Source: Leucoraja ocellata (taxonomy: Eukaryota). Taken from it: DNA of 64,000 bases. Both the position numbers and the translations under genes were made by a program. Position 1 is the first letter of the stretch; the number at the start of each line of letters is the position of its first letter. Below the pieces are notes generated by a model. It did not search any database. It worked only from the letters and a program-made list of their open reading frames with translations, and was not told where the DNA came from. The stretch lies in NCBI GenBank assembly GCA_036785375.1, contig JAWMAR010000070.1:7192001-7256000 (forward strand). Direction: 5' to 3'. Shown here piece by piece: positions 1-42,591 of this stretch.

Positions 1-3
1 TCT

Positions 4-548
4 GTGAGTGATGGGGGTGGGATTGTCTCTGTTCACTGTTCCCCCAGTTCAGAAGCCTGATAGCAGAGGGGAAGAAGCTGTTCCTGAGTCTGGTGGTGCG
101 CGCTTTCAAGCTTCTGTACCTTCTGCTAGACAGGACCAGGGAGAAGGAGGAATGACCGGGGTGGGACAAGTGATGGAGTCATAGAGTCACAGCGAGACCT
201 TCGGCCCAACTTGCCCGCGCCCACCAATGTGTCCCCATCAATACTAGACCCACCTGCCTGCGTTTGGCCCTTACCCCTCTAATCCTGTCCTATCAATGTA
301 CCTGTCTAACTGTTTCTTAATCATTGTGATAGTACCTGCCCCAACTACCTCTTCCGGCAGCTCGTTCCAAACACCCTCCACCCTTTGTGTAAAAAAGTCA
401 CCCCTCAGTTTCCCATGAAATCTTTCCCCCCCCCTCGCCTTAAACCGATGTCCTCTGGTTCTCGATTCCCCAACTCTGGGCGGGTTCAGGGAATGTCATC
501 ATGAATCCTACTGAGTTGCAATAAGGTGACCCATTGTTTCACCCACAG
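4..548 (+). other. Predicted 5'UTR intron of A1 (paralogous introns: 6587-7133, 14556-15098, 41503-42047 on +; 38443-38988, 56608-57152 on -)
   Basis: GTGAGT donor at 4 and TTGTTTCACCCACAG acceptor ending at 548, 4 nt before the ATG; filled with decayed LINE fragments. Confidence 0.7.
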
Positions 549-552
549 GAAC

Positions 553-1092
553 ATGGGACTGCAGAGATGGATAGGATTCATGGTCCTTGTGGAGATGGTG
601 TGGCAAGTCTCCGCAACTGGAACAGGTCCGATCTCCAGAGAATGGGGAGAGGAAGCAAACTTGGCCGGGCGGAACACACGGGCGTATTTCAAAGTCACCA
701 ATGAACCGCTTCCAAGATGCACGAACGAGTCAGATTCTGATGCCATCAGTCATCACCCATCACCGATTAACAAGAAGGTGCTCGTTGCATCTCTGGGTGG
801 TTCTGTTACGTTGCCATGTAATATATCCATCCTTAAAAATCATTACAGGGTTGTTCAATGGAAAAAAGATGGTGTTCAAATTGCCAGTTTCCATGAGAGA
901 GCGTATGCGCGTTATACGGGGTCTGATGTTCACTGGAAGTTCGTTGATCACGACGTCTATATGGCTCAGGACGCCACGTTGCTCCTGACAGGTGTAAAAG
1001 AGGAAGATACAGGGACGTATTCCTGTGTTTGGTTCCATTATAGAGATAGACCGTTTTGTGAATTATTGATGCAGCTGATGATCTCTCACTGA
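553..1092 (+). CDS. Secreted single V-set Ig-domain protein, subfamily A copy 1 (A1), 179 aa
   Basis: ATG 553 in strong Kozak context (GGAACATGG) just after a splice acceptor (TTGTTTCACCCACAG, AG at 547-548); the ORF-track GTG start at 526 lies in the intron. Hydrophobic leader MGLQRWIGFMVLVEMVWQVSA. V-set hallmarks: GGSVTLPC, VQW, DATLLL, EDTGTYSC, about 68 aa between the canonical Cys. Stop right after the G strand, no TM segment. Confidence 0.88.
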   Translation: MGLQRWIGFMVLVEMVWQVSATGTGPISREWGEEANLAGRNTRAYFKVTNEPLPRCTNESDSDAISHHPSPINKKVLVASLGGSVTLPCNISILKNHYRVVQWKKDGVQIASFHERAYARYTGSDVHWKFVDHDVYMAQDATLLLTGVKEEDTGTYSCVWFHYRDRPFCELLMQLMISH

Positions 1093-6254: not shown

Positions 6255-6586
6255 AGAACGAGACGTGGTGGAGACACAAGCAGGATGTGTGGGGCGCCTG
6301 GTTGGCCGCTGGCAGCTGGGATGACGTTGTTCTTGTTAAACGTTAACGGCTGATGCAACGACACGTTTGGCAGAGGGTGGAGAGGTCGCGGCTGACTCCG
6401 GCCAATGCTCCGTGGGAGGCAGTGATTGGTTGAATGTACGTGAGGGCAGACAATGAGGGGCAGGAGAAGCCGGGAGTCGGTATAAAAGGAGCGAGCGATG
6501 GCAGGAGATGAGAACAAGACCGACCCCGTCACCCTGTGTGGAGACTCCGGAGCTGGTAACCAACCCTGTGGATCCTTCAAGTGTCT
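6255..6586 (+). promoter_or_regulatory. A2 promoter and non-coding exon 1
   Basis: TATAAAAG 6481-6488; CCAAT 6402-6406; reverse ERSE CGTGG-N9-ATTGG 6411-6429; TGATGCAAC 6351-6359; TGACGT 6322-6327; splice donor GTGAGT 6587-6592. Confidence 0.75.
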
Positions 6587-7137
6587 GTGAGTGATGGGGG
6601 TGGGATTGTCTCTGTTCGCTGTTCCCCCAGTTCAGAAGCCTGATAGCAGAGGGGAAGAAGCTGTTCCTGAGTCTGGTGGTGCGCGCTTTCAAGCTTCTGT
6701 ACCTTCTGCTAGAGAGGACCAGGGAGAAGGAGGAATGACCGTGGGTGGGACAAGTGATGGAGTCATAGAGTCACAGCGAGACCTTCGGCCCAACTTGCCC
6801 GCGCCCACCAACGTGTCCCCATCAATACTAGACCCACCTGCCTGCGTTTGGCCCTTACCCCTCTAATCCTGTCCTATCAATGTACCTGTCTAACTGTTTC
6901 TTAATCATTGTGATAGTACCTGCCTCAACTACCTCTTCCGGCAGCTCGTTCCAAACAACCTCCACCCTTTGTGTAAAAAAGTCACCCCTCAGTTTCCCAT
7001 GAAATCTTTCCCCCCCCCCTCGCCTTAAACCGATGTCCTCTGGTTCTCGATTCCCCAACTCTGGGCGGGTTCAGGGAATGTCATCATGAATCCTACTGAG
7101 TTGCAATAAGGTGACCCATTGTTTCACCCACAGGAAC

Positions 7138-7674
7138 ATGGGACTGCAGAGATGGATAGGATTCATGGTCCTTGTGGAGATGGTGTGGCAAGTCTCCGCA
7201 ACTGGAACAGGTCCGATCTCCAGAGAATGGGGAGAGGAAGCAAACTTGGCCGGGCGGAACGCACGGGCTCCTCGACAAGTCACCAATGAAACGCTTCCAA
7301 GATGCACGAACGAGTCAGATTCTGATGCCATCAGTCATCACCTATCAACGATTAACAAGAAGGTGCTCGTTGCATCTCTGGGTGGTTCTGTTACTTTGCC
7401 ATGTAATGTATCCAACGTTGACAATAGTCCCGAGGTTACATGGAATAAAGATGGTGTTGAAATTGCCTATTTCCATAGTAGAGTGCATGAGCGTTATACA
7501 GGATCTGATGTTCACTGGAAGTTCGTGCAACGAAACGTCCTTTGGGAACAGGACGCCACGTTGCTCCTGACAGGTGTAAAAGAGGAAGATAAAGGGACGT
7601 ATTCCTGTGTTTGGATCAAGTATCGTCAGAAACCGGTTTGTGAATTATTGATGCAGCTGATGATCTCTCACTGA
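7138..7674 (+). CDS. Secreted single V-set Ig-domain protein A2, 178 aa
   Basis: Same leader and acceptor as A1; GGSVTLPC...VTW...DATLLL...EDKGTYSC; intact ORF. Confidence 0.88.
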   Translation: MGLQRWIGFMVLVEMVWQVSATGTGPISREWGEEANLAGRNARAPRQVTNETLPRCTNESDSDAISHHLSTINKKVLVASLGGSVTLPCNVSNVDNSPEVTWNKDGVEIAYFHSRVHERYTGSDVHWKFVQRNVLWEQDATLLLTGVKEEDKGTYSCVWIKYRQKPVCELLMQLMISH

Positions 7675-9529
7675 TTCAGCAGGGCCAGTCCCAGGGTCAG
7701 TAACAAAGTCTAGTTTAGTTTAGTTTAGTTCCGTTCAGAGGTACAACAGGGAAACAAGCCCTTCGGCCACAGAGTCAATGGGGACCAGTGATCACCCCAT
7801 ATACTAGTTCTATCCCACACACTAGATACAATTTACACTGACCAATTAACCTACAAACCTGCACGTCTCTGGGGTGTGGGACGAAACCGGAGCTCCCGGA
7901 TTCCAAAGAGGAAGGAAGATTCCAAGGGGAGTTAGGGGCGACCGTGGCTGACAAGGGAAGTCAGGGACACTATCACAAATGCATTTCGTTGTCTCTGTTC
8001 TGTACACTGACAATGACAATTAAATTGAATCTGAATCTGATAAAAGTGAACAGGTATAACGTTGCAAAGATGAGCGGAAAGCCAGGGGATTAGGTAACTC
8101 TTTTAAAGAGCAACAGAAGATAACTAAAAAAGCAATACGGGGAGAAAAGATGAGGTATGAAGGTAAGATAGCCAAGAATAGAAAGGAGGATCGTAAAAGC
8201 TTCTTTAGATATGTGAAAAAAATTAGTTCAGACTAAAATTGGTCCTTTATAGACTAAAAACTTTGGATCCGTCTTCACTAAGGAGAACACAAACAATCTC
8301 CCTGATGTACTAGTGGCCAGGGGATCTGGGGACAATGGAGAGCCAGTGGATGTAGTGTACCTGGACTTGCAGGAAGTATTTGATAAGGTCCCACATAGGA
8401 GATTAGTGGGCAAAATGAGAGCACATGGTATTGGGGGAAGGGCCTGTTTCCATATTGTTTGACTCTGACACTAAGTAGGGAATAGTAAAGGTATAAAGAT
8501 GAGCAGCGTGGAAGGTGTGAGCGTGGATCACATGCAGTGAGGAGAACTGGCCTTGCTTGCACCGGTAAATGTACGTTTAATTTAAATAAACTTTCTTCTG
8601 CCTGCCCTGAAGACAGCCGGTGTGAGTGATTCTTTGTACGCCAGCATTGAGTTGGGTGTGAACTTTGTGCAACTTTTGCTCACTACGGGCAACATCGCCG
8701 GATTAAAGGGCCAGTCCCACGAGCATGCGACTCCATGCGGCAAGCGCGACCTAACGTGGTCACTTGAGCCGTACGGCCTCGCGGGACCGGTCCCACTTTG
8801 ATCGCCGGAGCCGTATGGAGTTGTGTGGAGCTGGTCCCGACATCGCGCGGGGCTCTGAAAAACTGAATATGTTAGGAAATGGAAACAGGTTCTTCGGCCC
8901 ACCGAGTCTAACCCAACCAGTGATCACCCCTACACTAGTTCTAACCTACACACTAGGGACAATTTACTGAAGCCAATTAACCTACAAATCTACACGTCTT
9001 TGTAATCTGAAAGGAAACCAGAGCACCCGGAGGAAACCCACATGGTCCCAGGGACAATGTACATACACTGTACAGACAGTGCCCGTAGTCACCATCGAAG
9101 GCGGGTCTCTAGCGCTGTAAGGCAGCAACTCTACCGCGGCGCCACTGTACCGCCCCTGCATTGCCCTCGTGCATTGTTAGGGCTGCTGATTAGAGTCCAG
9201 TTTTGACCCTCGTTGGGTGTCAATTGTGGTTGTCAAGGAGCTTTCTTACCTCCGTATGGAGCCTGGTCTTCCAGTTATAGGCCCACACCACCCTGGCCAC
9301 ACTCTCTTATCACCACTACTGAGGGGAAGGTACAGGAGCCTGAGAACCGTGAGCTCCAGGTTCAAGAGCAGCTTCTTCCCAGCAAGCACAAGGTTGTTGA
9401 ACCAGCCTGCACAACCCCAACCACAGCCCTACGCCACTCACCACAACCCTACACAACCCTGATGGACACTGCACCACTGGTGATATAAAGTTACTGAGCA
9501 GACCAAGTGCAGATCCATTGGGTCTGCTC

Positions 9530-12014: not shown

Positions 12015-14223
12015 TTCAGCCTCGTGCAAGCAGAAACACTCCAAAAGGTCACGCTGTCCCAAGGATTCTTCCAGAAGATCGACAAATGAACCTCGTGGGG
12101 GCTGCCTTTTATAAGTCCCCGAACCTTGAGGGGCCGAACTACATAGGGGTGGTCTCTTTACAATCCAATCAAACATATTAATTACATCAGTATATTATAG
12201 ACAGTTTCCCAGACCACTAACAGATCCCGTACATTGTTTCAGGAGAAGCTTCTGGAAGATGCTAACTTAACTTGAATAATGCAACATTTACCCTGGAATT
12301 CAAACAAACCCGCCAGGGCTCAACACTTTAGCCAATCAACAAACAGTAGGATAACTGCCTGGCACATTATATACAATATTTACAATGCTGTTACAGTAAT
12401 CCAATCAACCATGCATTTACACTTCATTGGAGGTCATCTCCTTGCACGGAAATCGGCATCAAAACATGGGGGGCCACAATTCCATGGCAGCACACATGCA
12501 CACGCATGCATGCGGCACACACGCGAGGATTCGGCCATGGGCCCTGTGGACAGTAACATCGGGAGCTGACTTGGTTGGTGACCGATTCCGAACTCCAGCA
12601 ACAGCAGCTTCGTCCGCCCCGAACCGTGGGGCTTGAATCGGCCCGTTCGCGGGGCCTTTCATCGCCCGGCAGGGGTTTCAACATTGGCATTGATGTGGAT
12701 AGAGAACTGGCTGGTCTCTTAATCTGAGGAAAGACATTATTGCCATAGAGAGAGTACAGAGAAAGTTCACCAGACTGATTCCTGGGATGTCAGGACTTTA
12801 TGGCATACTGAGTTGGATGATCAGTATAATCATATTAAATGGCAGTGCAGGCTCGAAGGGCCGAATGGCCTACTCCTGCACCTATTTTCTATGTTTCTAT
12901 GGGAGCCTCGATCGCCTCGATCGCCTCGATGCAGCAGTTTGATTATAAGCCGCTTGGGCGCTGAAAGGCCCCGCGAACGGGACGATTCTGCCCATTGAAA
13001 GCGTCTGATAAAGTCCGGAACACAAAACATGGGCGGGGGGGGGGGAAATCGTCCCCCACCTCCCAAAGCATAGGGAGACGTGCCCCATGTCCCCCCCCAG
13101 GATTTCCGCCCATGGCGGTCACGATATCTCCTTCACCGCCGCAGTCTCGACGCCTCTTTGATGGCCGCGAAAAACCCCATGTGGGGCGTAGAAGGCCGGG
13201 TCGGATAAAGCGGAAAGTTAATTTCAATGAGGTCCTCCCCCTGACATCACTGGAAGCTGCTGGTCGACCACTCCCCCTTTGTGACATCACTCGAAGGGGG
13301 GTGAAGGTTTGCCGTTTAATAAGTTGGTTTTCACTATTTTTAAAACGCTATAACTTGTGAACTACAGCATGTAATGTGAAGTGGAGCAGTTTATTTTGTC
13401 AAAGGGGTTAATGTGATTAATAATGTGCGGAGGAGGGGAGGAGGAGAGGGGAGAGAAGGAGGAGGGTAAAGACGAGGGGGAGGGAGTGTAAGAGACTCGC
13501 CTGCGCAGTTGTGGGGTATGGGTGAGTGGTGGAATATTACGTTGGGGGGACGGGTACATCGCAAAGGAATCTCATTTAGATTTCTTGGGAGGAGGCTTTT
13601 CATTGTGGGGGGTGGAATTGCTGAGAGGTTTCATTTACTCCTTATTTATAAAATAATTACGATTGTGGGGAGGGGTGGGTTGGGGGCGGGGGCTCCCCGT
13701 TTCATTGTGGGGGGGTGGAGTAAGAGAGAGGTTTCATTTCCAGAATTTTCCTTGCTAGGGGATGGGGTGAGTATTGTGGGGTATGGGTGAGTGGTGGAAT
13801 ATTACGTTGGGGGAACGGGGCCCAACGGGTCCCACTTGGTCTAGTTATCATTATTTATTTAATGTTTCACGTTTACACCAATCTCTCCACCACCACGAAC
13901 AAGCAGCACAAGACGCAACAAGACAGACACCATTTTATGCAGATGCCGAGAAGTGTGATCAGCTCTGGCTGAACAACTAATCTTGTGTGTGGATTCGATA
14001 AGCAGAAGATTTAATGTCATAGTGTTATACAGTCATAGAGTGATACAGCATGGAAACAGGCCCTTTGGCCCAACTTGCCCACATTGGACAACATGTCCCA
14101 GCTACACTAGTCCCACCTGTCCACGTTTGGTCCATATCCCTCCAAATCTGACCTATCCCTGTTCCTGTCTAGCAGTTTCTTAAACGTCGGGATAGTTTCT
14201 GCCTCAACTGCGATGAGTTGACC

Positions 14224-14555
14224 AGAACGAGACGTGGTGGAGACACAAGCAGGATGTGTGGGGCGCCTGGTTGGCCGCTGGCAGCTGGGATGACGTTGTT
14301 CTTGTTAAACGTTAACGGCTGATGCAACGACACGTTTGGCAGAGGGTGGAGAGGTCGCGGCTGACTCCGGCCAATGCTCCGTGGGAGGCAGTGATTGGTT
14401 GAATGTACGTGAGGGCAGACAATGAGGGGCAGGAGAAGCCGGGAGTCGGTATAAAAGGAGCGAGCGATGGCAGGAGATGAGAACAAGACCGACCCCGTCA
14501 CCCTGTGTGGAGACTCCGGAGCTGGTAACCAACCCTGTGGATCCTTCAAGTGTCT
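14224..14555 (+). promoter_or_regulatory. A3 promoter and non-coding exon 1
   Basis: TATA 14450-14457, ERSE 14380-14398, donor GTGAGT at 14556; essentially identical to the A2 promoter. Confidence 0.72.
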
Positions 14556-15102
14556 GTGAGTGATGGGGGTGGGATTGTCTCTGTTCACTGTTCCCCCAGT
14601 TCAGAAGCCTGATAGCAGAGGGGAAGAAGCTGTTCCTGAGTCTGGTGGTGCGCGCTTTCAAGCTTCTGTACCGTCTGCTAGACAGGACCAGGGAGAAGAA
14701 GGAATGACTGGGGTGGGACAAGTGATGGAGTCATAGAGTCACAGCGAGACCTTCGGCCCAAGTTGCCCGCGCCCACCAATGTGTCCCCATCAATACTAGA
14801 CCCACCTGCCTGCGTTTGGCCCTTACCCCTCTAATCCTGTCCTATCAATGTACCTGTCTAACTGTTTCTTAATCATTGTGATAGTACCTGCCTCAACTAC
14901 CTCTTCCGGCAGCTCGTTCCAAACACCCTCCACCCTTTATGTAAAAAAGTCACCCCTCAGTTTCCCATTAAATCTTTCCCCCCCTCGCCTTAAACCGATG
15001 TCCTCTGGTTCTCGATTCCCCAACTCTGGGCGGGTTCAGGAAATGTCATCATGAATCCTACTGAGTTGCAATAAGGTGACCCATTGTTTCACCCACAGGA
15101 AC

Positions 15103-15652
15103 ATGGGACTGCAGAGATGGATAGGATTCATGGTCCTTGTGGAGATGGTGTGGCAAGTCTCCGCAACTGGAACAGGTCCGATCTCCAGAGAATGGGGAGA
15201 GGAACCAAACTTGGCCGGGCGGAACGCACGGGCCCCTCAGCAAGTCAACAATGAACCGCTTCCAAGATGCACGAATGACTTAGATTCTGACAGTGATCAC
15301 GGTGCATCGAATAGCGATATTAGGCTCATTGCATCTCCGGGTGATTCTTTGACGCTGCCCTGTAAAATATCCAAAGATTACAAACAACTCTGGTTAGTTC
15401 AGTGGAGACAAAACGATGTTGAAATTAACAATTATAATGAGAAAACGTTTGATGAATATACGGGATCTGATGTCCGCTGGATATTTGTGGATCTAGAAGT
15501 CCTTTGGGACTGGGACGGCTCGTTGCTCCTGAGGCATAAAAGAGAAAGATGAAGGGATATATTCCTGTGTTTCGTTCATTGATACTCATGTGTTATGTGA
15601 AGAATTGGCCCAGCTGACAATCCTCCCAGTGATTCAGCAGTGCCCGACCTAG
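15103..15652 (+). pseudogene. Frameshifted A-type Ig V-domain gene (A3)
   Basis: Same leader; PGDSLTLPC...VQW...DGSLLL, then a 2-nt deletion after 15532 (CTG A-- GGC versus CTG ACA GGT in A1). The shifted frame continues GIKEKDEGIYSCVSFIDTHVLCEELAQLTI. An extra base near 15622 also moves the paralogous TGA (15630-15632) out of frame. Confidence 0.75.
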
Positions 15653-16759: not shown

Positions 16760-19700
16760 GGTAGTGAGTAGACTACACCTATTATGCGCGTTATATTATC
16801 AAGAGCTTGCCTCCGCTAGTTTGTACGAGTAGCTACTAGGAAATGTAATGTCCTGCAGATCTATGCTGTAAGTAGATTTAATAAACATGTGTTGTATCTT
16901 GATATGTGTCCGACTCAGCTCATTACATGATGTCCACTATGTCATGTTTTTTTTAATTAGTTTTTGTGTCTACTATATCCATCATGACACATTTTTGTCG
17001 CCTTCCTAGTCCTGTGATCTTTGACTCTGACATTGCTGAACTCGGGCGTCTTTTCGAGCATGACTACACTCATTATGCTGGCATTGTTCATCGCAACGAC
17101 CCCCCCAATGTGCGTGCTTTTGTGTTGCTCAACTTAGCGGGACCTGAAGCTATGAATCGCGCTGGCAATTTCACATTTGAGCCTGCTGTTCTGGATGCTA
17201 ATGGTCAGGTCCTGGCGCCTGCTGAGACGAATGACGACCCTGCTGTCTTTCTTGCAAAGTTCAGATGGTTGTGTGACCTGCACTCAAACTATATTATTGA
17301 ACGGAGGTACACAAAAATGCTGGAGAAACTCAGCGGGTGCAGCAGCATCTATGGAGCGAAGGAAATAGGCGACGTTGCCTATTTCTATAAGGGTTTCGGG
17401 ATGAAACGTTGCCTATTTCCTTCGCTCCATAGATGCTGCTGCACCCGCTGAGTTTCTCCAGCATTTTTGTCTACCTTTGTTCCATTTGATCTTCCGTTTG
17501 TGCACGTCGAGTTGATTGCATTAGTTGAAACAGGGCGGACCTCGTGAAATCTTCCACCCCTGACATATGACGAAGGAATGGATCGACTGTGCTTGTATTC
17601 ACTGGAATTTAGGATGAGACTGGAACTTATAAAAACATATAAAATTCTTAAGGGATCGGACAGACTAGATAGATGCAGGAAAAATATTGGGGGAGTCCAG
17701 AACCAGTGGTCACACAGTTTAAGAATAAGGTCTCGGCCATTTAGGACTGAGATGAAAAAAAACCTTTTCACCCAGAGAGTTGTGAATCTGTGGAATTCTC
17801 TGCCACAGAAGGCAGTGGAGGCCAATTCACTGGATGTTCTCAAGAGAGAGTTAGATTAAGCTCTTAGTGCTAACGTAATCAAGGGATATGGGGAGAAAGC
17901 AGGAACGGGGTAATGATTTAGGATGTTCAGCCATGATCATATTGAATGGCGGTGCTGGCTCGAGGGGCCGAATGGCCTCCTCCTGCACCAATTTTCTATG
18001 TTTCTGCACAATCCCAACAAGGGTCAAAACTGGACTCTAATCAGCTGCTGCAACTGTGCAAGAGGCCAATGTAAGGGAGGCTCAGTGATACAGCTGTAGA
18101 GTTGCTGCCGTACAGCGCTAGTGACCCGGGTTCAATGCTGACTGTAGGTACTGTCTGTACGGTGGTTGTACTTTTTCCCTATGACCGTGAGGGTTTCGCC
18201 CAGGTGCTACAGTTTCCTCACAGATGTCAAAGACGTGCAGGTTTGTAGGTTAATTGGCTTCAGTAAATTGTCCCTTGTGTGTAGGTTAGAACTAGTGTAC
18301 GGGCGATCACTCAAGTTCAAGTGTTTAAGAGAGATTATTGTCATGTGTCCCTGATAGGACAATGAAATTCTTGCTTTGCTTCAGCACAACAGAACATAGT
18401 AGGCATTTACTACAGAACAGATCAGAGTTTCTCCAGCATTTTTGTGTACCTTTGATCTTCCAGCATCTGCAGTTCCTTCTTGAGCATATTATTGAACGGA
18501 CCAAGTTTTATGCTCGTATGCAACAGGTTGGTGAACCAAAGGTTTTATCAGTGACTTAAAACAAATGGCTGCACGCTGCTGATTTCAAGATCTCTGCGAT
18601 GAACTCATCCATGACAAACTTGTCGGAGGAATGCTTGATAGCAAGTTACGGGGTGAACTTCTTTGTAATACTGACCTAACCCTTAATCAAGCAGAGCATG
18701 CCTGTTGGATGCTGAGATAACATCTTCCCACACTGAGTCTGTGTCCTCTGGTCACTGTTCGCAGCATAGTGTTAATCTTGCAGACTACTCCTCTTGTAAC
18801 ACCCACACAAGGTCTGTTCGATGTCAAAATTGCAACTATTTTCTTGCTAGGTGTCAGCAGTTCTGCGTTGCTTATGGTAAAGCCTGTAATTTCTGCAAGA
18901 AGTTAAACCACTTTTCTCGATGCTGCCGTTCCCGTGTGACTCAAGCAGCGTCAAGGATGAGCCTGCACCTGCTGCAACATGAGCTTGTTGATAATGACTT
19001 CCAAGAGCTTGATTTGCCATCCCCCGCTCCACTCTCAGAAAGTACAGATACCAGTTCTGCAACCCATTCTCCCCTCCCTTCGTCTAACAAGCAACTTGAC
19101 CCTGAGGTAACCATGTTTGTGATTAACAGGCCTTTAATCGCTAAGGTTGATACTGGCACAAAATGCAATGTCATCTCGTTAACAGAGTTTTAAAAATTCG
19201 TTATGCTGCATGTATTGAAAAGGCCTCGGCCACGCTTTGGACTTACGGGGGAGATGTTCTACACCCTCTTGGACAAGCTGATTTAAAGTGCACCATAGAC
19301 AAGCAGACTCATACTTTAAAGGTTTATATTGTTAAGGGGGATTCAGAGACTTTGCTCAGTATCAACGCAATCCACGATCTAGGCCTGGTATAGTTTGGCT
19401 ACGCCGTCCATCAAGACTTTCTCGCTGATGGACACACTCAACAGGTACTCTCTCAATACAAAGATCTGTTTAACGCCAAGCTTAGCAAATTGCCTATCAA
19501 ATACCACATTGTTGTCGATCCCAACATAACTCCTGTGGTCCGAGAACCGCATCATGCTCTGCACGCCATGCGTGGCAGAGTAAACAATGAACTCAAGCGG
19601 ATGGTCTCCATGGGTGTTATTGCCGAGGTTACAGACCCATCTGACTGGGTTTCCACAATGGTGGTCGCAACAAAGAAAAACAAAGAGGAGATCCATATCT

Positions 19701-20325
19701 GCATAAACCCCAGAGACCTTAACTGCCATCAAACGGCCACACTACCCAATGCGATTATTAGAGGAAGTTGCTGCTCAGGTAGGCAACACTTCAGTATTCT
19801 CCATTCTGGATGCCAAGAGCTCATTTTGGAAGATTCCACTGGACCCAGACACGTCAAATCTCATTTCATTCGGCACCCCCTTTGGCCGATACAAATTTCT
19901 GAGAATGCCCTTTGGCATCAACTCTGCCAGCGACGTTTTCCAGCGCACGATGGAACAATTGTTTGTTGAGTACCCATGTGCCATCATTGTTGATGACATT
20001 CTCGTCTACAGACGTGATTGGACTGAACATGACGCCAATCTGAAGAAAGAACTATACAATGCCAAAGACATTCAGCTCAAACTCAATCCCTTGAAGGGCA
20101 AGTTTCGAGTTCCAGAAGATACTGACGTTGGACATGTCTTCACAAGTGATGGTCTCAGACCAGACCCATCAAAAACTGCACCTATCAACAAAATGCCGGT
20201 TCCTTGGAATGGTCAACTACCAGGGGAAATTTATTCCCAACCTCAGCGACATATCTGCCCCCTGTGGGAACTGACACACAAGGACGCTGCATGGTCATGG
20301 TATCCGCAGCACCAAAGAGTTTTCC
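16760..20325 (+). mobile_element. Decayed Ty3/Gypsy LTR retrotransposon (Mag-like), 3'-truncated
   Basis: Short 5' LTR about 16760-16927 ending CTCATTACA; gag with Zn knuckle CNFCKKLNHFSRCC; protease KVDTGTKCNVIS; RT FSILDAKSSFW, RMPFGI, IIVDDILVY; multiple stops and frameshifts. Confidence 0.88.
17306..18485. mobile_element. Composite insertion with palindromic Penelope-like ends and 15-bp TSD (duplicate 47119-48889)
   Basis: ATATTATTGAACGGA at 17291-17305 and 18486-18500 flanks the insert, which interrupts the Gypsy gag. Confidence 0.65.
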
Positions 20326-20572
20326 ATCAACCGTTCCTCAGCCCACCTGGCCATTATTTCAGGATGCTGCTGCAATTTATCACAACCATCTCCACTATCT
20401 GCAAAACCGCCTACTTTTGTGTCATCTCCCTTTACTTCTGTCCCTGTTTTGTTCCTGACAACATTCCCTTTTACTTTTGTTCCTGTTCTCAACACCTGCG
20501 GACTCCATGATTTTCCACATGTTGTTCCGGCCCCGTGTGGTCATGGACAATGTTGGACACAGCTCATAGAAG

Positions 20573-21112: not shown

Positions 21113-21628
21113 TCACTTCACTGTCAGCTTGATATTTAGTCTACATTCCTTTTGGCCAGTGAACCAAGAGCAGGAATATATCCCAATATCAGTCTTGAGT
21201 AAACCTATGATGACCAACGAGGCATCCCGTGTCCCATCCACGTTTGTATTCATGAACCTCCAGCGGCCGACCCCCCCTGGATAAGTCGCTCCTTTCCCTT
21301 TAGTAAACACGCCCAGTATCCCGCTCCCTTTACTCCAGGTGATCATAAAATCCGCGGGTCCAGTCTTCCCTGTGGGTACTTTACAGGGCAGCGTAGCAGA
21401 ACCACCCTTGCGTGCCGTCACATCCGTGAATTTCATCTTGGTCGCAGCTGGCTTAGCACCGCATTCTGGAGAACTTTGTTTTTTGACTTGTCGAGGCTCC
21501 CGTGCGTTCCACCCGGGCAAGTTTGCTTCCTCTCCCCATTCTCTGGAGATCGGACCTGTTCCAGTTGCGGAGACTTGCCACACCATCTCCACAAGGACCA
21601 TGAATCCTATCCATCTCTGCAGTCCCAT
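21113..21628 (-). CDS. Secreted single V-set Ig-domain protein, subfamily B copy 1 (B1), 171 aa
   Basis: Same leader as the A genes; GGSATLPC, ITW, GRWRF, RDASLVI, DIGIYSC, ends KLTVK-stop; no TM segment. Confidence 0.88.
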   Translation of the reverse strand: MGLQRWIGFMVLVEMVWQVSATGTGPISREWGEEANLPGWNAREPRQVKKQSSPECGAKPAATKMKFTDVTARKGGSATLPCKVPTGKTGPADFMITWSKGSGILGVFTKGKGATYPGGVGRWRFMNTNVDGTRDASLVIIGLLKTDIGIYSCSWFTGQKECRLNIKLTVK

Positions 21629-21632
21629 GTTC

Positions 21633-22218
21633 CTGTGGGTGAAACAATGGGTCACCTTATTGCAACTCAGTAGGATTCATGATGACATTCCCTGAAGCTG
21701 CTGCCACCACACTGGGCAATATCGCTGTGCAGCTTCTACAGCTCCCGCCTGGTTTAGTTTAAGTTGCTTTGACCTGTCGTGGACCAACAACATTGAAGTG
21801 GCAGCCAAGGAGGCACACCAATGCATCGACTTCCTCAGAGACAGAGGAAATACGACAAGTCTCCAATGTCTCTTAGAAACTTCTACAGATGCACCACAGA
21901 GAGCAGACTGTGGGGTTGCATCACAGCTTGGTTTGGGAACAGCTCTGAGCCCAAGACCACAAGATATTGCAGAGTTGTGGATGGAGCCCAGTCCATCACA
22001 CAGACCACACTCCCCACCAGTGACTCCATCTACAACCAAAAAAATCAAAGTCTTGTCCCACCCCGGGCATTCCTCCTTCTCCCTGGTCCTGTCTAGCAGA
22101 CGGTACAGAAGCTTGAAAGCGCGCACCACCAGACTCAGGAACAGCTTCTTCCCCTCTGCTATCAGGCTTCTGAACTGGGGGAACAGTGAACAGAGACAAT
22201 CCCACCCCCATCACTCAC
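21633..22218 (-). other. Predicted 5'UTR intron of B1, alternative type (also B3, 52036-52621)
   Basis: Same donor and acceptor ends as the other copies, but the middle (about 21696-22050) is a longer Rex1-like remnant instead of the CR1-type fragment. Confidence 0.65.
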
Positions 22219-22593
22219 AGACACTTGAAGGATCCACAGGGTTGGTTACCAGCTCCGGAGTCTCCACACAGGGTGACGGGGTCGGTCTTGTTCTCATCTC
22301 CTGCCATCGCTCGCTCCTTTTATACCGACTCCCGGCTTCTCCTGCCCCTCATTGTCTGCCCTCACGTACATTCAACCAATCACTGCCTCCCACGGAGCAT
22401 TGGCCGGAGTCAGCCGCGACCTCTCCACTCTCTGCCAAACGTGTCGTTGCATCAGCCGTTAACGTTTAACAAGAACAACGTCATCCCAGCTGCCAGCGGC
22501 CAACCAGGCGCCCCACACATCCTGCTTGTGTCTCCACCACGTCTCGCTTTGGCCACCCATCGGACCAGATGTCCCAGCCACGCCACGTCACCA
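22219..22593 (-). promoter_or_regulatory. B1 promoter and non-coding exon 1
   Basis: TATA 22317-22324; ERSE CCAAT-N9-CCACG 22376-22394; UPRE-type TGACGTGG (CCACGTCA on + strand) 22583-22590. Confidence 0.75.
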
Positions 22594-29070: not shown

Positions 29071-31597
29071 GGACCACAATATGGTCGAATTCCATATTCA
29101 AATAGAAGGGGAGCAGGTTGAAACTCAGGCTAGGGTGCTTAGTCTAAATAAGGGGGATTATGAAGGTATGAGGACTTAGCTGATCAAAGTTGACTGGGAT
29201 AGCAGACTCAAGAATAAGACGGTACATGAGCAGTGGTGTACGTTTAAGGGTATACTGTATAATCTTCAAGAAAAATTTATTCCTATGAAGAAAAAAAGGG
29301 GTAAGGGTAAGAACAGTCAGCCATGGCTCAGTAAAACTATAAAGGATAGTATTCGGCTGAAAGCAAGGGCATATAAGGTAGCCAGAGATAGTGGGAGGGT
29401 AGAGGATTGGGAAGCATTTAAAGGTCAGCAAAAAATAACTAAGAGATTAATTAAGACGGGGAAAATAGATTATGAAAGGAATTTAGCGAACAACATAAAA
29501 ACTAATAGTAAGAGTTTTTATAGCTATATAAAAAGAAAAAGGGTGGCTAAGGTGAACGTTGGTCCATTGGAGGGTGAGACTGGAGAGTTGTTGGTGGGGA
29601 ACATGGAAATGGCAAAGGCATTAAACGAGTATTTTGTATCAGTCTTCACCATAGAAGACACAAAAAATATTCCAACGCTGGATAAACAGGGGGCGGTAGG
29701 AATGGAGGAGCTAAATACTATTAAGATCACCAAGGAGGTGGTATTAGGGAAATTAATGAGACTGAAGGAGGATAAATCCCCTGGGCCTGATGGATTACAT
29801 CCAAGGGTCTTGAGGGAGATAGCGGTGGGGATTGTGGATGCATTGGTGATAATTTTCCAAAACTCCCTGGAGGCAGGAACGGTCCCAGTGGATTGGAAAA
29901 TGGCCAATGTAACACCTATATTTAAAAAAGGAAGTAAACAGAAGGCGGGTAACTATAGACCGGTTAGTCTAACATCGGTGGTGGGTAAAATGTTAGAGAC
30001 AATTATTAAAGAAACACTAACGGGGCACTTGGATAAACATGACTTCATCGGACAGAACCAGCATGGTTTTGTGAAGGGGAAGTCCTGTTTAACGAATCTG
30101 CTCGAATTCTTTGAGGAAGTAACAACCCGGGTGGATAAAGGGGAACCGGTGGATGTGGTATACTTGGACTTCCAAAAGGCTTTTGACAAGGTGCCACATA
30201 AGAGACTATTGCTAAAAATAAAAAATTATGGGATTGGGGGTAATATATTAGCATGGGTAGAGGATTGGCTAACAAATAGGAAGCAGAGAGTGGGGATAAA
30301 TGGTTCATACTCGGGATGGCAACCGGTAACTAGCGGGGTTCCGCAGGGGTCGGTGCTGGGACCCCAGTTGTTCACAATTTATATAAATGATTTGGAGGAG
30401 GGAACCAAGTGTAATATATCAAAATTTGCGGACGATACAAAAATGGGAGGAAAAGTAGGGGATGAGGAGGATAGGAAGAGTCTGCAAAAGGATATAGATA
30501 AGCTAGGTGAGTGGGCAACAACTTGGCAGATGAAATTTAATACTAATAAATGTGAAGTCATTCACTTTGGGAAAAAAAATGATAGGGCAAGTTATTTTCT
30601 AAATGAGGAGGAGCTGCGTTGTAATGCAACGCAAAGGGATCTAGGGGTATTAGTACATGAATCACTGAAAGTTAGTATGCAGGTGCAGCAAGCAATCAGG
30701 AAGGCCAATGGAGTTTTGGCCTTTATTGCTAGGGGGATTGAGTATAAAAACACGGAGGTCTTGCTGCAGCTGTACACAGTATTAGTGAGACCACATTTGG
30801 AATACTGTGTACAGTTCTGGGGTCCATACTTAAGAAAGGATGTACTAGCCCTGGAGGCAGTGCAGCGAAGGTTTACAAGATTAATTCCTGCAATGAGGGG
30901 ATTGACATATGAGGAAAGGTTAAGTAGGCTGGAACTCTACTCTTTGGAGTTTAGAAGAATGAGAGGCGATCTCATTGAAACATATAAGATCGTGAGGGGC
31001 CTTGATCGGGTGGATGCACCGAGGATGTTCCCAATGATCGGGGAAACTAGAACTAGGGGACATAGTTGCAGAATAAGAGGGGGCTCTTTTAAAACTGAGA
31101 TGAGGAAGAACTTCTTCACCCAGAGGGTGGTTAATTTATGGAATTCACTGCCCCAGGGAGCAGTGGAAGCAGAAACTTTAAATATATTTAAGACAAAAAT
31201 AGATGTTTTTTTAGCTGCCAAGGGGATAAGGGGCTACGGGGAGAGGGCAGGGATATGGACCTAGGTATGGTTAGTATAGTAAGACCTGAGTGATCTCCTG
31301 GACAAGTGTCGATCGCCTGGATTGGGGTCAGAGAGGAATTTCCCGGATTTTTTTCCCGAATTGGACCTGGGTTTTTATCCGTTTTTTTGCCTCCCCCAGG
31401 AGATCACGAGGTTCTTGGGGTGGAGAGGGGTGATAGCGGTATAAGGGGGAGGGTAGTGTCTTGTGTTCTGTGTCTTGTGTCTACTGTTTGTGGGTAAGTG
31501 TGTCTGTTTAGTGTTCAGCCATGAGCGAATGGCGGTGCGGGCTCGACGGACCTGGTGGTCTACTCTCGCACCTACTTTCTATGTTTCTATGTTTCTA
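29071..31597 (+). mobile_element. Young 5'-truncated CR1 LINE nested in the ERV
   Basis: ORF2 homology begins at DHNMVEFHI; ends in (TTTCTATG)n. Confidence 0.92.
29285..31264 (+). CDS. CR1 ORF2 remnant, reverse transcriptase domain, 659 aa open frame, endonuclease missing
   Basis: [43 protein letters not shown]; in-frame stop upstream at 29177-29179. Confidence 0.8.
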   Translation: MKKKRGKGKNSQPWLSKTIKDSIRLKARAYKVARDSGRVEDWEAFKGQQKITKRLIKTGKIDYERNLANNIKTNSKSFYSYIKRKRVAKVNVGPLEGETGELLVGNMEMAKALNEYFVSVFTIEDTKNIPTLDKQGAVGMEELNTIKITKEVVLGKLMRLKEDKSPGPDGLHPRVLREIAVGIVDALVIIFQNSLEAGTVPVDWKMANVTPIFKKGSKQKAGNYRPVSLTSVVGKMLETIIKETLTGHLDKHDFIGQNQHGFVKGKSCLTNLLEFFEEVTTRVDKGEPVDVVYLDFQKAFDKVPHKRLLLKIKNYGIGGNILAWVEDWLTNRKQRVGINGSYSGWQPVTSGVPQGSVLGPQLFTIYINDLEEGTKCNISKFADDTKMGGKVGDEEDRKSLQKDIDKLGEWATTWQMKFNTNKCEVIHFGKKNDRASYFLNEEELRCNATQRDLGVLVHESLKVSMQVQQAIRKANGVLAFIARGIEYKNTEVLLQLYTVLVRPHLEYCVQFWGPYLRKDVLALEAVQRRFTRLIPAMRGLTYEERLSRLELYSLEFRRMRGDLIETYKIVRGLDRVDAPRMFPMIGETRTRGHSCRIRGGSFKTEMRKNFFTQRVVNLWNSLPQGAVEAETLNIFKTKIDVFLAAKGIRGYGERAGIWT

Positions 31598-37925: not shown

Positions 37926-38438
37926 TCACATCACTGTCAGCTTGGTATTTAGTCTACATTCCTCTTTGCCAGTGAACCAAGCGCAGGAATACATCCCAAC
38001 ATCACTCTTCTGTAAACCCGTGATGACCAACGAGGCATCCCGTGTCCCATCCACGTTTGTTTCCTTGAACGACCAGCGGCCGGCCCCCCCTGGATAGGTC
38101 GCACCTTTCCCTTTAGTAAACACGGCCAATGTCCCCTTCCCTTTACTCCAGGTGACAGCAAAGTTGCTGGGTCCATCCTTCCCTGTGGGTACTATACAGG
38201 GTAGCGTAGCAGAACCACCCTTTGCCGTCACATCCGTGAATTTCATCTTGTTCGCAGCTGGCCTAGCACCGCATTCTGGAGTATCTTGTTTGTTGACTTG
38301 TCGAGGCTCCCGTGCGTTCCACCCGGGCAAGTTTGCTTCCTCTCCCCATTCTCTGGAGATCGGATCTGTTCCAGTTGCGGAGACTTGCCACACCATCTCC
38401 ACAAGGACCATGAATCCTATCCATCTCTGCAGTCCCAT
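37926..38438 (-). CDS. Secreted single V-set Ig-domain protein B2, 170 aa
   Basis: Intact paralog of B1 (GGSATLPC...VTW...DASLVI...DVGMYSC...KLTVM). Confidence 0.88.
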   Translation of the reverse strand: MGLQRWIGFMVLVEMVWQVSATGTDPISREWGEEANLPGWNAREPRQVNKQDTPECGARPAANKMKFTDVTAKGGSATLPCIVPTGKDGPSNFAVTWSKGKGTLAVFTKGKGATYPGGAGRWSFKETNVDGTRDASLVITGLQKSDVGMYSCAWFTGKEECRLNTKLTVM

Positions 38439-38988
38439 GTTCCTGTGGGTGAAACAATGGGTCACCTTATTGCAACTCAGTAGGATTCATGATGACATTC
38501 CCTGAACCCGCCCAGAGTTGGGGAATCGAGAACCAGAGGACATCGGTTTAAGGCGAGGGGGGGGGGGAAAGATTTAATGGGAAACTGAGGGGTGACTTTT
38601 TTACACAAAGGGTGGAGGGTGTTTGGAACGAGCTGCCGGAAGAGGTAGTTGGGGCAGGTACTATCACAATGATTAAGAAACAGTTAGACAGGTACATTGA
38701 TAGGACAGGATTAGAGGGGTAAGGGCCAAACGCAGGCAGGTGGGTCTAGTATTGATGGGACACGTTGGTGGGCGTGGGCAAGTTGGGCCGAAGGTCTCGC
38801 TGTGACTCTATGACTCCATCACTTGTCCCACCCCGGTCATTCCTCCTTCTCCCTGGTCCTGTCTAGCAGAAGGTACAGAAGCTTGAAAGCGCGCACCACC
38901 AGACTCAGGAACAGCTTCTTCCCCTCTGCTATCAGGCTTCTGAACTGGGGGAACAGTGAACAGAGACAATCCCACCCCCATCACTCAC

Positions 38989-39365
38989 AGACACTTGAAG
39001 GATCCACAGGGTTGGTTACCAGCTCCGGAGTCTCCACACAGGGTGACGGGGTCGGTCTTGTTCTCATCTCCTGCCATCGCTCGCTCCTTTTATACCGACT
39101 CCCGGCTTCTCCTGCCCCTCATTGTCTGCCCTCATGTACATTCAACCAATCACTGCCTCCCACGGAGCATTGGCCGGAGTCAGCCGCGACCTCTCCACCC
39201 ACTGCCAAACGTGTCGTTGCATCAGCCGTTAACGTTTAACAAGAACAACGTCATCCCAGCTGCCAGCGGCCAACCAGGCGCCCCACACATCCTGCTTGTG
39301 TCTCCACCACGTCTCGCTTTGGCCACCCATCGGACCAGATGTCCCAGCCACGCCACGTCACCACC
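38989..39365 (-). promoter_or_regulatory. B2 promoter and non-coding exon 1
   Basis: TATA 39087-39094, ERSE 39146-39164, TGACGTGG 39353-39360. Confidence 0.75.
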
Positions 39366-41170
39366 ACAGCCCTTGGCACCTGCGCTGGTTCCACAGTTTA
39401 TACTCAATCTGAGCCGGCAGCTGGGATGGCGTTGGATCAATTCTTCCTTCCCAACAACCATCAGGCTGTTGAACACGACACGACACTGAGGTCAACGATG
39501 AACGTCTATGGAATGTCCAAGGTTGCACTAATGCCCCTGTCCCACTTAGGAAACCTGAACGGAAACCTCTGGAGACTTAGCGCCCCACCCAAGGTTTCCG
39601 TGCGGTTCACGGAGGTTTTTGTCTGTCTCCCTACCTGCTTCCACTACCTGCAACCTCCGGCAACCACCTGCAACCTCCGGCAACCACCTGCAACCTCCGG
39701 GAACCTTCGGGACGAAACGTTGCCTATTTCCTTCACTCCATAGATGCTGCTGCACCCGCTGAGTTTCTCCAGCATTTTTGTGTACCTTCGATTTTCCAGT
39801 ATCTGCAGTTTCTTCTTCAACATCAAATAGAACAAGTTGTCCTACAACTTTAGGCTGTGCACGCCACACGAAAGAAGAAGTTGACATGTCTGTCCCGCCA
39901 TCCCGGGTATTAACCTGGTGAACCTACGTTGCACTCCCTCAATAGCAAGAATGCCCTTCCTCAAAATGACAGTGAAGTGCTGCCTCTACAGAGACACCCA
40001 ATAGACCTGATAGAATGGTATAAAATGATGAGAGGCGTAGATAGCTGAGATAACCTGAAGCAATTTCCCGAAGGCTTTGGAGACGGTGCAGAAGCAGTTC
40101 CCCAGAATGATGTCGGGATCGGAGGTTGTTAGTTATATGGACAGGTTGGATAATCTTGGATTAGTTTCTCTAGAACTTCAGATGTTGAGCGGAGACCTGA
40201 CAGAAGGTAATAAAATTCTTAAGGGGTTGGACAGGCTAGATGCAGGAACGTTGTTCCCGATGTTGGGGAAGTCCAGAACTAGGGGTCACAGTTTAAGGAT
40301 AAGGGGGAAATCTTTTAGGACCGAGATGAGAAAAACATTTTTCACACAGAGAGTGGTGAATGTGGAATTCTCTGCCACAGAAGGTATTTGAGGCCAGTTC
40401 ATTGGCTATATTTAAGAGGGAGTTAGATGTGGCCCTTGTGGCTAAAGGGATCAGGGGGTATGGAGAGAAGGCAGGTACTGGATACTGAGTTTGATGATCA
40501 GCCATGATCATATTGAATGGCGGTGCAGGCTCGAAGGGCCGAATGGCCTACTCCTGCACCTATTGTCTATTGTCTACTGTCTATTGTCTATTGAGATAGG
40601 AAACATTTAAAGATACAAGTGGAGGTAGTTACAATAGTTCAGAGACTTTATCTAAAAAATCTCATGGACATGCAGGGAATTGAGATTATGGATCAGGTGC
40701 AGGCAGAGGAGATTAGCTGAACTTGGCATCATGTTCAGCACGGACCTTGTGGGCCGAAGGGCCTGTTCCTGTGCTGTTCCATGTTCTATGTTACATCATC
40801 TTCTCAATCACATCTTGAGAAGAACATTTTCCAGAGGTGCCCAGGTACCACCAGTGTGACATTCATTGTATCTGCTGCAGTCAATGAGTGTGTTGTGTAG
40901 ACAGCCAGAGGAGAAGATGGGATTTATGTGGAGTTTCATTTTGTAATCATTATTTATTTAATATCATAGTGTAATAGAGTCATAGAGTGATACAGCGTGG
41001 AAACAGGCCCTTCGGCCCAACTTGCCCACACTGGCCAACATGTCCCAGCTACACTAGTCCCACCTATCCACGTTTGGTCCATATCCTTCTAAATCTGACC
41101 TATACCTGTTCCTGTTTAACTGTTTCTTAAACGTCGGGATAGTTTCTGCCTCAACTGCGATGAGTTGACC

Positions 41171-41502
41171 AGAACGAGACGTGGTGGAGACACAAGCAGG
41201 ATGTGTGGGGCGCCTGGTTGGCCGCTGGCAGCTGGGATGACGTTGTTCTTGTTAAACGTTAACGGCTGATGCAACGACACGTTTGGCAGAGGGTGGAGAG
41301 GTCGCGGCTGACTCCGGCCAATGCTCCGTGGGAGGCAGTGATTGGTTGAATGTACGTGAGGGCAGACAATGAGGGGCAGGAGAAGCCGGGAGTCGGTATA
41401 AAAGGAGCGAGCGATGGCAGGAGATGAGAACAAGACCGACCCCGTCACCCTGTGTGGAGACTCCGGAGCTGGTAACCAACCCTGTGGATCCTTCAAGTGT
41501 CT
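41171..41502 (+). promoter_or_regulatory. A4 promoter and non-coding exon 1
   Basis: TATA 41397-41404, ERSE 41327-41345, donor at 41503; divergent from the B2 promoter. Confidence 0.75.
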
Positions 41503-42051
41503 GTGAGTGATGGGGGTGGGATTGTCTCTGTTCACTGTTCCCCCAGTTCAGAAGCCTGATAGCAGAGGGGAAGAAGCTGTTCCTGAGTCTGGTGGTGCGC
41601 GCTTTCAAGCTTCTGTACCTTCTGCTAGACAGGACCAGGGAGAAGGAGGAATGACCGGGGTGGGACAAGTGATGGAGTCATAGAGTCACAGCGAGACCTT
41701 CGGCCCAACTTGCCCGCGCCCACCAATGTGTCCCCATCAATACTAGACCCACCTGCCTGCGTTTGGCCCTTACCCCTCTAATCCTGTCCTATCAATGTAC
41801 CTGTCTAACTGTTTCTTAATCATTGTGATAGTACCTGCCCCAACTACCTCTTCCGGCAGCTCGTTCCAAACACCCTCCACCCTTTGTGTAAAAAAGTCAC
41901 CCCTCAGTTTCCCATGAAATCTTTCCCCCCCCCTCGCCTTAAACCGATGTCCTCTGGTTCTCGATTCCCCAACTCTGGGCGGGTTCAGGGAATGTCATCA
42001 TGAATCCTACTGAGTTGCAATAAGGTGACCCATTGTTTCACCCACAGGAAC

Positions 42052-42591
42052 ATGGGACTGCAGAGATGGATAGGATTCATGGTCCTTGTGGAGATGGTGT
42101 GGCAAGTCTCCGCAACTGGAACAGGTCCGATCTCCAGAGAATGGGGAGAGGAAGCAAACTTGGCCGGGCGGAACACACGGGCGTATTTCAAAGTCACCAA
42201 TGAACCGCTTCCAAGATGCACGAACGAGTCAGATTCTGATGCCATCAGTCATCACCCATCACCGATTAACAAGAAGGTGCTCGTTGCATCTCTGGGTGGT
42301 TCTGTTACGTTGCCATGTAATATATCCATCCTTAAAAATCATTACAGGGTTGTTCAATGGAAAAAAGATGGTGTTCAAATTGCCAGTTTCCATGAGAGAG
42401 CGTATGCGCGTTATACGGGGTCTGATGTTCACTGGAAGTTCGTTGATCACGACGTCTATATGGCTCAGGACGCCACGTTGCTCCTGACAGGTGTAAAAGA
42501 GGAAGATACAGGGACGTATTCCTGTGTTTGGTCCGTGTATAGAGATAGACCGTTTTGTGAATTATTGATGCAGCTGGTGATCTCTCACTGA
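42052..42591 (+). CDS. Secreted single V-set Ig-domain protein A4, 179 aa
   Basis: Near-identical to A1; differs at FH>SV in the FG region and M>V near the C-terminus. Confidence 0.88.
   Translation: MGLQRWIGFMVLVEMVWQVSATGTGPISREWGEEANLAGRNTRAYFKVTNEPLPRCTNESDSDAISHHPSPINKKVLVASLGGSVTLPCNISILKNHYRVVQWKKDGVQIASFHERAYARYTGSDVHWKFVDHDVYMAQDATLLLTGVKEEDTGTYSCVWSVYRDRPFCELLMQLVISH

Follow-up and report, generated by a model that had tools for sequence, protein, structure and literature searches.

A homogenised 5' cassette shared by divergent V-set immunoglobulin-domain genes in a skate gene cluster

In the skate Leucoraja ocellata, the members of a clustered gene family encoding single V-set immunoglobulin (Ig) domains share a near-identical 5' cassette of about 1 kb, comprising promoter, exon 1, intron and the first leader codons, whereas the mature domains that follow it are divergent. 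Cassette and domain have different histories, homogenisation of the cassette depends on linkage, and dN exceeds dS within domain classes. We consider it highly probable that the cassette is kept homogeneous by linkage-dependent gene conversion together with unequal exchange, and that the domain is shielded by selection and heterology; conversion would be the molecular route of homogenisation.

Gene architecture and the copies in the window

The window, i.e. the whole 64,000-nucleotide stretch analysed (positions 7,192,001 to 7,256,000 of contig C70), is situated in a 3.4-Gb genome and contains eight copies of the gene, as located by self-BLAST and alignments, four on the plus strand (ATG at 553, 7138, 15103 and 42052) and four on the minus strand (ATG at 21628, 38438, 52031 and 56603). 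The gene consists of a short exon 1, one GT-AG intron and one coding exon, in which a signal peptide and a ~22-residue pro-segment precede a V-set Ig domain that is closed by a stop codon. The copy with its ATG at 7138, assigned to class A1, serves as the reference:

6255..7260, plus strand: homogenised 5' cassette of the class A1 reference copy (promoter, exon 1, intron, leader codons), from self-BLAST and alignments
6255..6497, plus strand: GC-rich, promoter-like segment, putative, from the sequence
6498..6586, plus strand: exon 1, from RefSeq skate models and a spliced Logan contig
6587..7133, plus strand: single GT-AG intron of 547 nt, of which ~6613-6726 and ~6784-7068 are high-copy repeat sequence
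7138..7275, plus strand: putative signal peptide (~residues 1-21) and pro-segment ending RNARAPR, homogenised to codon 37
7276..7674, plus strand: mature part, i.e. a linker with Cys56 and the V-set Ig domain (Cys89, Cys157, extra Cys168), from Pfam V-set (E=3e-10), model, fold search and hydropathy

The promoter-like segment contains CCAAT (6402-6406), a reverse CCAAT (6425-6429) and TATAAAA (6481-6487), which we take to be promoter motifs. An ATG at 6498, which has a good context and lies only 17 bases past the TATA-like motif, would add 31 residues, including three cysteines. The frame that it opens reads on into exon 2 in 54 of the 56 scored cluster copies (one further copy was missed by the anchor) and is part of the RefSeq skate models as well as of a spliced Logan contig of 900 nt. 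Since the two unlinked paralogues on contig C16 have this frame disrupted, exon 1 is, as judged from sequence, probably mostly 5' UTR. The Logan contig encodes a 202-residue member joining exon 1 to exon 2 and, because the unspliced gene is too long for 900 bases, the splice would be real in some public run. Two public runs guessed to be RNA had coverage on the repeat parts only, which speaks neither for nor against expression.

The other window copies are as follows:

1..1092, plus strand: class A2 copy, CDS 553-1092, its cassette starting before the window
14211..15552, plus strand: class E pseudogene (ATG 15103), frameshifted by a 2-base deletion in the domain, its cassette still homogenised
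21113..22562, minus strand: class B1 copy, CDS 21628-21113, with the ancestral L-type intron middle
37926..39332, minus strand: class B2 copy, CDS 38438-37926, with an S-type intron, forming a head-to-head pair with the 42052 copy
41158..42591, plus strand: class A2 copy, CDS 42052-42591
51516..52965, minus strand: class B3 copy, CDS 52031-51516, with an L-type intron
56088..57497, minus strand: class B4 copy, CDS 56603-56088, with a B-type upstream flank, an A-type cassette edge and an S-type intron

The B2/A2 head-to-head pair (38438-42052), the cassettes of which are 1.8 kb apart, recurs within a higher-order repeat of ~40-50 kb. Mobile elements are also present in the window. At 58511-62644, a gag-like ORF, a reverse transcriptase ORF and tyrosine recombinase ORFs lie in a row, with Pfam RVT_1 and Phage_integrase matches, in what we take to be a DIRS-like retrotransposon. 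A reverse transcriptase ORF of 659 residues, presumably of LINE type, lies at 29285-31264, and two decayed pol fragments, presumably from LTR retrotransposons, at 19568-20510 and 49972-50944, were copied with a segmental duplication.

The encoded proteins and the cluster

The B-strand Cys, the C-strand Trp, the D-x-G-x-Y-x-C motif and the V-type strand pattern place the mature part in the V-set; Pfam V-set scored above its cut-off for four of four proteins, and the strands and fold matches of a predicted model agree with this assignment. The original prediction had a single R-x-x-R site ahead of the domain, but there are two registers among the 51 intact copies, residues 40-43 only in 10, 43-46 only in 22, both in 19 and neither in none. 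From its sequence, the pro-segment would be cleaved at R-x-x-R, and Cys56 and Cys168 may form a disulfide bond. The reference protein ends within the coding exon and has no transmembrane segment; among 10 class representatives, no hydrophobic 19-mer scoring >1.7 was found after residue 45, i.e. no membrane anchor was seen.

The closest proteins are products of uncharacterised genes of the little skate, Leucoraja erinacea (LOC129708937-946), and of Rhinoraja (LOC144605155), with one electric-ray protein (Narcine XP_069798310, 'nectin-1-like') being more distant. These otherwise unnamed batoid proteins have the same leader, PRQ motif, four cysteines and single V domain, the Narcine homologue carrying only P-R-Q instead of R-x-x-R. 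A third, word-indexed protein search returned the same eight batoid proteins. In a profile search of 1.84 billion proteins, the best 150 of 2251 matches, a selection from which shark relatives with a single domain may be absent, contained only two proteins that aligned over their full length, one from the little skate and the one from Narcine, the rest being multi-Ig proteins; a protein atlas gave generic V-set clusters only. The family is thus batoid as far as the sequence searches reach. No description of it was found in the main texts searched, mostly outside subscription journals, where six of the skate and ray identifiers were unmentioned.

The best sequence and fold matches to the skate family are the V domains of nectin, PVR, CD226 and JAML, at 20-28% identity. 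These are multi-domain membrane proteins, nectins having a V-C-C ectodomain, a transmembrane helix and a cytoplasmic tail, whereas the skate proteins consist of a pro-segment and a single domain without an anchor; the stop in the same exon and the lack of a hydrophobic segment place them outside the nectin family. Nor do they belong with CD300/pIgR/MDIR, of which the hallmark is YWCR or WCR in strand C and a second cysteine pair (PMC3031540, in excerpt): strand C has W-x-K, and the additional cysteines are located ahead of strand A and within strand G. Membership of the VCBPs was likewise rejected, because the stop ends the V exon and the last 70 coding bases of 8 representatives contain no GT(A/G)AG donor; no fusion of a V to a chitin-binding domain was seen. 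With respect to a viral origin, a viral fold library gave generic Ig matches only, at 10-23% identity and no better than the cellular nectins.

A scan of 664 kb around the window revealed 57 leader-bearing copies at 6.99-7.52 Mb of C70, 51 of them intact. They are arranged in two blocks of 32 and 25 genes, which are split by a 200-N gap at 7,312,930 and are collinear flank to flank at 97-99.7%, 6.99-7.30 Mb being repeated at 7.32-7.56 Mb. The sequence suggests that the blocks are probably two haplotypes stacked in tandem, with ~25-32 genes per haplotype, so the copy number in the assembly is probably inflated; if this is correct, the unequal gene counts imply copy-number variation. Block 1 alone encodes 22 different mature proteins. 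In place of the two domain classes, A and B, recognised originally, the domains divide into at least seven major ones (A to G), of which E is a frameshifted lineage. The two C16 copies, one of them intact, are additional to the 57.

Several structural variants were observed. Two orphan cassettes (C70 7,260,731 and 7,512,148; L021, L046) are cut within the intron by retroelement-like sequence and lack the coding exon; they are >99% identical to intact cassettes. The intron of a B copy at C70:7,496,114 (L044-L045) measures 1,200 bases and contains an additional insertion, the cassette ends still being homogenised. Upstream of class F and of a C16 copy (L022:1478-1650; L065:5135-5485), the part of the promoter with the CCAAT motif occurs a second time in inverted orientation (51-56 nt, 92-93%), an arrangement absent from the reference copy. 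Chitinase genes border the cluster, with one situated within it between g06 and g07 (7,049,320-7,059,897), as annotated by a Pfam scan of 150 of the 382 non-repeat ORFs in the flanks. A large tandem array of GH18 chitinases with CBM14 domains extends over C70 6.93-7.97 Mb (e.g. L006-L007, L022-L026, L055-L060), with one gene ending in three CBM14 repeats (L026:5820-6428); 62 of the 66 GH18 exon matches in the genome fall on C70.

Cassette and domain have different histories

Relative to the reference, the seven other window copies are identical at 488-494 of 496 aligned bases over 6255-6751 and at 175-177 of 177 over 7072-7248, bearing out the claim that promoter, exon 1, intron ends and first codons are near identical across copies. 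The sharing had been thought to be limited to the ends of the intron; the ends are indeed shared, but so is the middle, which is common to the reference and five of the seven other window copies (302-306 of 307-309 bases) and is of a derived S type found in 47 of the 57 cluster copies. Only the 21628 and 52031 copies in the window have a different, older middle. Over the mature region, identity of the four B copies to the reference falls to 210-217 of 351 bases and to 36-40 of 117-118 residues, in line with the original statement that A and B domains share little. In 50-base bins against five copies of other classes, identity is 92-100% from 6300 to 7249, compared with 25-68% upstream of 6250 and 30-76% from 7300 to 7699. 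The predicted loss of identity past R-x-x-R is therefore real, but instead of collapsing at a single point identity decays gradually across codons 38-52. The 3' flanks, too, differ by class.

Synonymous sites show the same division. Between A1 and B4, 0 of 24 leader sites differ, as against 35 of 84 sites of the mature part (Fisher p=3e-5). For 12 genes representing the classes, drawn from the 51 intact genes (E excluded), all 66 pairs are synonymously identical over leader codons 1-37, whereas mature dS between major classes is 0.40-1.08 (Nei-Gojobori); when only fourfold sites of unchanged codons are counted, divergence is lower (2-11 differences in 16-43 sites). Cassette and domain were thus examined for congruent trees and comparable synonymous divergence, the outcome that would refute the original interpretation, and this was not found, leader pS being 0. 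Over the 57 copies, promoter and exon 1 diverge by 0.48% between and 0.37% within major classes, and the 3' intron plus leader by 0.73% and 0.83%, respectively.

The unlinked C16 paralogues escaped homogenisation. Fixed differences separate them from all 57 cluster copies at 26 of 299, 4 of 161 and 9 of 172 columns in three parts of the cassette (39 in total), and their domain is nearest to class F (dS 0.25); a clade of all cluster domains is weakly rejected, the test being borderline, with long branches meeting (AU p=0.045). This position, outside all 57 cassettes and inside the domain tree, supports the ongoing gene conversion or cassette swapping of the original prediction. The C16 copies have an L-type intron middle, which implies that the S-type is derived, and share the promoter together with a B-type upstream flank, which implies that the promoter is ancestral. 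The S-type middle, which is high-copy repeat sequence absent from C16, is 98.2% identical between major classes in its 47 copies (1.75% difference). Residue 28 is Ser in 51 of 51 intact copies and Ala in C16 and the Rhinoraja gene. At the level of proteins, to which comparisons with other species are confined, classes G, B4 and D are nearly unchanged with respect to their little-skate counterparts, indicating that the classes are old rather than hypermutating; the domain of the single Rhinoraja gene is sister to class F (support 98/94). The fixed derived changes and the repeat-derived middle, both present across classes, thus spread over domain classes much older than themselves. The 5' intron, however, differs between C16 and the cluster by only 3.3%, and the leader at 0 of 22 synonymous sites, versus 15% in the intron middle; such slow change even against C16 suggests that constraint, or occasional long-range exchange with C16, contributes.

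Signs of exchange are found throughout the cluster. Eight unrelated types of upstream flank abut the cassette and do not track payload, e.g. an A-type flank occurs on B5 payloads and one type occurs in C genes as well as in some A1 genes. Among the 30 cassette SNPs that are shared, the minor allele of 9 is present in two or more major classes, and 23 of 435 SNP pairs fail the four-gamete test, some of which recurrent mutation could explain. Genes at corresponding positions of the two blocks, g30/g55 and g31/g56, are distinguished by leader variants that also occur in other classes, and class A domains have their terminal loop sequences reshuffled between backgrounds. GC-biased conversion is suggestive at most, the GC excess of fixed differences being 19 versus 9 (unpolarised, p=0.09, not significant). 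Codon models gave omega values of 2.3 for class A (19 distinct sequences, 24 genes; LRT against 1 = 12.7) and 2.0 for class B (13 distinct sequences, 18 genes; LRT against 1 = 11.7), which recombination and the inclusion of both probable haplotypes may inflate. In class A, 15 of the 20 positions with at least three states fall at residues 98-121 and 160-167, i.e. in strands C, C' and C'' and the FG loop of the predicted model; in nectin-type V domains these elements form the binding face. The B1 and B4 domains have net charges of +13 and +12, while those of A, C and F are neutral or acidic.

These observations can be accommodated as follows. The 1-kb cassette is the sole long near-identical stretch in all copies, so conversion and unequal exchange would be self-sustaining there. 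Non-allelic gene conversion, and sometimes unequal or inverting crossover, would spread new cassette variants to every copy, with tracts stopping at heterology, i.e. at the repeat-rich unrelated flanks upstream and at codons 38-52 downstream. Selection would purge tracts that overwrite a domain and diversifying selection would keep the old classes apart, while within-class exchange would shuffle surface patches. The outcome would be many putative binding domains on one promoter and one secretion signal. The uniformity of the cassette may itself be selected, or homogenisation may be a by-product of the tandem arrangement.

Purifying selection alone could in principle fix promoter, intron and leader, with the domain under positive selection and exchange unneeded, and both the slowness of the 5' intron and leader against the unlinked copies and a leader still recognisable in the electric ray are consistent with this. 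We nevertheless think it improbable, and it is already largely refuted by the fixed derived differences, as all 57 copies are distinct from C16 at 39 columns and old classes have come to share a derived, repeat-type intron middle. Moreover, leader variants are mostly non-synonymous (8 non-synonymous versus 2 synonymous types), and five frameshifted E copies and the two orphan cassettes, which may be young, are as homogeneous as the rest (0-4 differences from the majority; intact mean 2.7). Local hypermutation has been argued for some toxin genes, and would here mean that all copies are young with a locally hypermutated mature exon. High dS as well as dN in the domain fits such a process, as does the dS of 0.25 between C16 and F, somewhat above the intron-middle divergence of 0.15. 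It is very improbable, however, given that G, B4 and D are near identical to little-skate orthologues and F pairs with the Rhinoraja gene, that positional pairs between blocks differ no more in the domain than elsewhere, and that class differences continue into the 3' flanks.

The sharp 5' edges of the cassette against unrelated flanks and its star-like tree would also be expected had a cassette or mobile promoter captured many old domains in one recent sweep, with no continuing exchange. The promoter, however, is ancestral rather than dispersed in the genome, two intron types coexist with identical ends, and the g30/g55 and g31/g56 partners differ by variants present in other classes, so that we give a single sweep very little credence. 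An origin of the promoter from a mobile element or LTR was rejected separately: all scored genome matches lie on C70 or C16 (40 of 65 candidates scored per search, 65 matches, some partial, being inside the cluster itself), and read depth is low compared with true repeats. That polishing or collapse made the repeats identical is scarcely credible, even though the cluster is present twice, at 97-99.7% collinearity around a 200-N gap. Little-skate proteins from an independent assembly have the same leader across six classes, the copies carry private SNPs, and read-level contigs merge the cassette into single high-depth pieces, e.g. 348 bases at depth 336, versus 58-95 on the A1 domain.

Relation to known systems

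Conotoxins, frog skin peptides and cathelicidins combine a conserved prepro region with a variable mature part. The skate family is like them in layout only, since its payload is a 120-residue Ig domain and its sharing spans promoter and intron at 98-100%; comparison with toxin families is an analogy of layout, and a toxin nature is unsupported by any result. The process is known; its scale here is unusual, and the gene family is unnamed. In excerpts of PMC2955719, the Hessian fly SSSGP-1 genes form a tandem and inverted cluster with conserved promoter, 5' UTR, intron and signal peptide and a positively selected mature region, for which concerted homogenisation was proposed; these are insect salivary effectors, with seven genes in 15 kb and a 3' UTR that is conserved too, whereas the skate has 5'-only homogenisation, an Ig-fold payload, 25-32 genes and an unlinked control. 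The shark scpp/sparc-L genes, elasmobranch tandem paralogues with Ks ~0.7, have converted 5' coding exons while the rest is old (PMC9122587, in part), but involve two genes and four patches rather than one continuous cassette, including the promoter, on dozens of genes. For the red/green opsins, the available part of PMC3924837 describes introns that group by species and a selected exon that resists conversion, in a peak-of-divergence model; there are two genes with a narrow peak, whereas in the skate the whole mature domain and 3' flank escaped.

The VCBPs of amphioxus and Ciona are secreted V-type domains fused to a chitin-binding domain (PMC4757023, in excerpt); the skate V domains are likewise putatively secreted, with chitinases bearing CBM14 nearby, on separate genes. 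The interleaved chitinases hint at a mucosal role, a reproductive or skin secretion being equally plausible, and the copies may be co-expressed to form a mixture of secreted binding proteins on mucosal or other external surfaces. A more far-reaching reading, which we regard as rather unlikely, is that of a germline repertoire of secreted antibody-like V domains outside Ig/TCR, carried on a plug-in cassette, co-secreted with the interleaved chitinases and forming a vertebrate counterpart of the VCBP gut system in which V domain and chitin-binding domain are encoded by separate genes. If true, cassette exchange would let any domain be copied onto a common promoter and secretion signal.

The family provides an unusually clean vertebrate example of a gene with two histories, its front ends being ~0.5% apart and its domains separated by dS 0.4-1.1. 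Its built-in controls, i.e. unlinked paralogues, pseudogenes and a repeat-derived intron marker, make constraint, hypermutation and conversion testable against one another in one locus, which bears on a long-standing question about secreted effector families, namely the stronger conservation of their leaders and introns relative to their mature regions. The results also bring to light a batoid family of secreted V domains that is unnamed and under positive selection, and that may contribute, so far overlooked, to innate defence or reproduction in cartilaginous fish.
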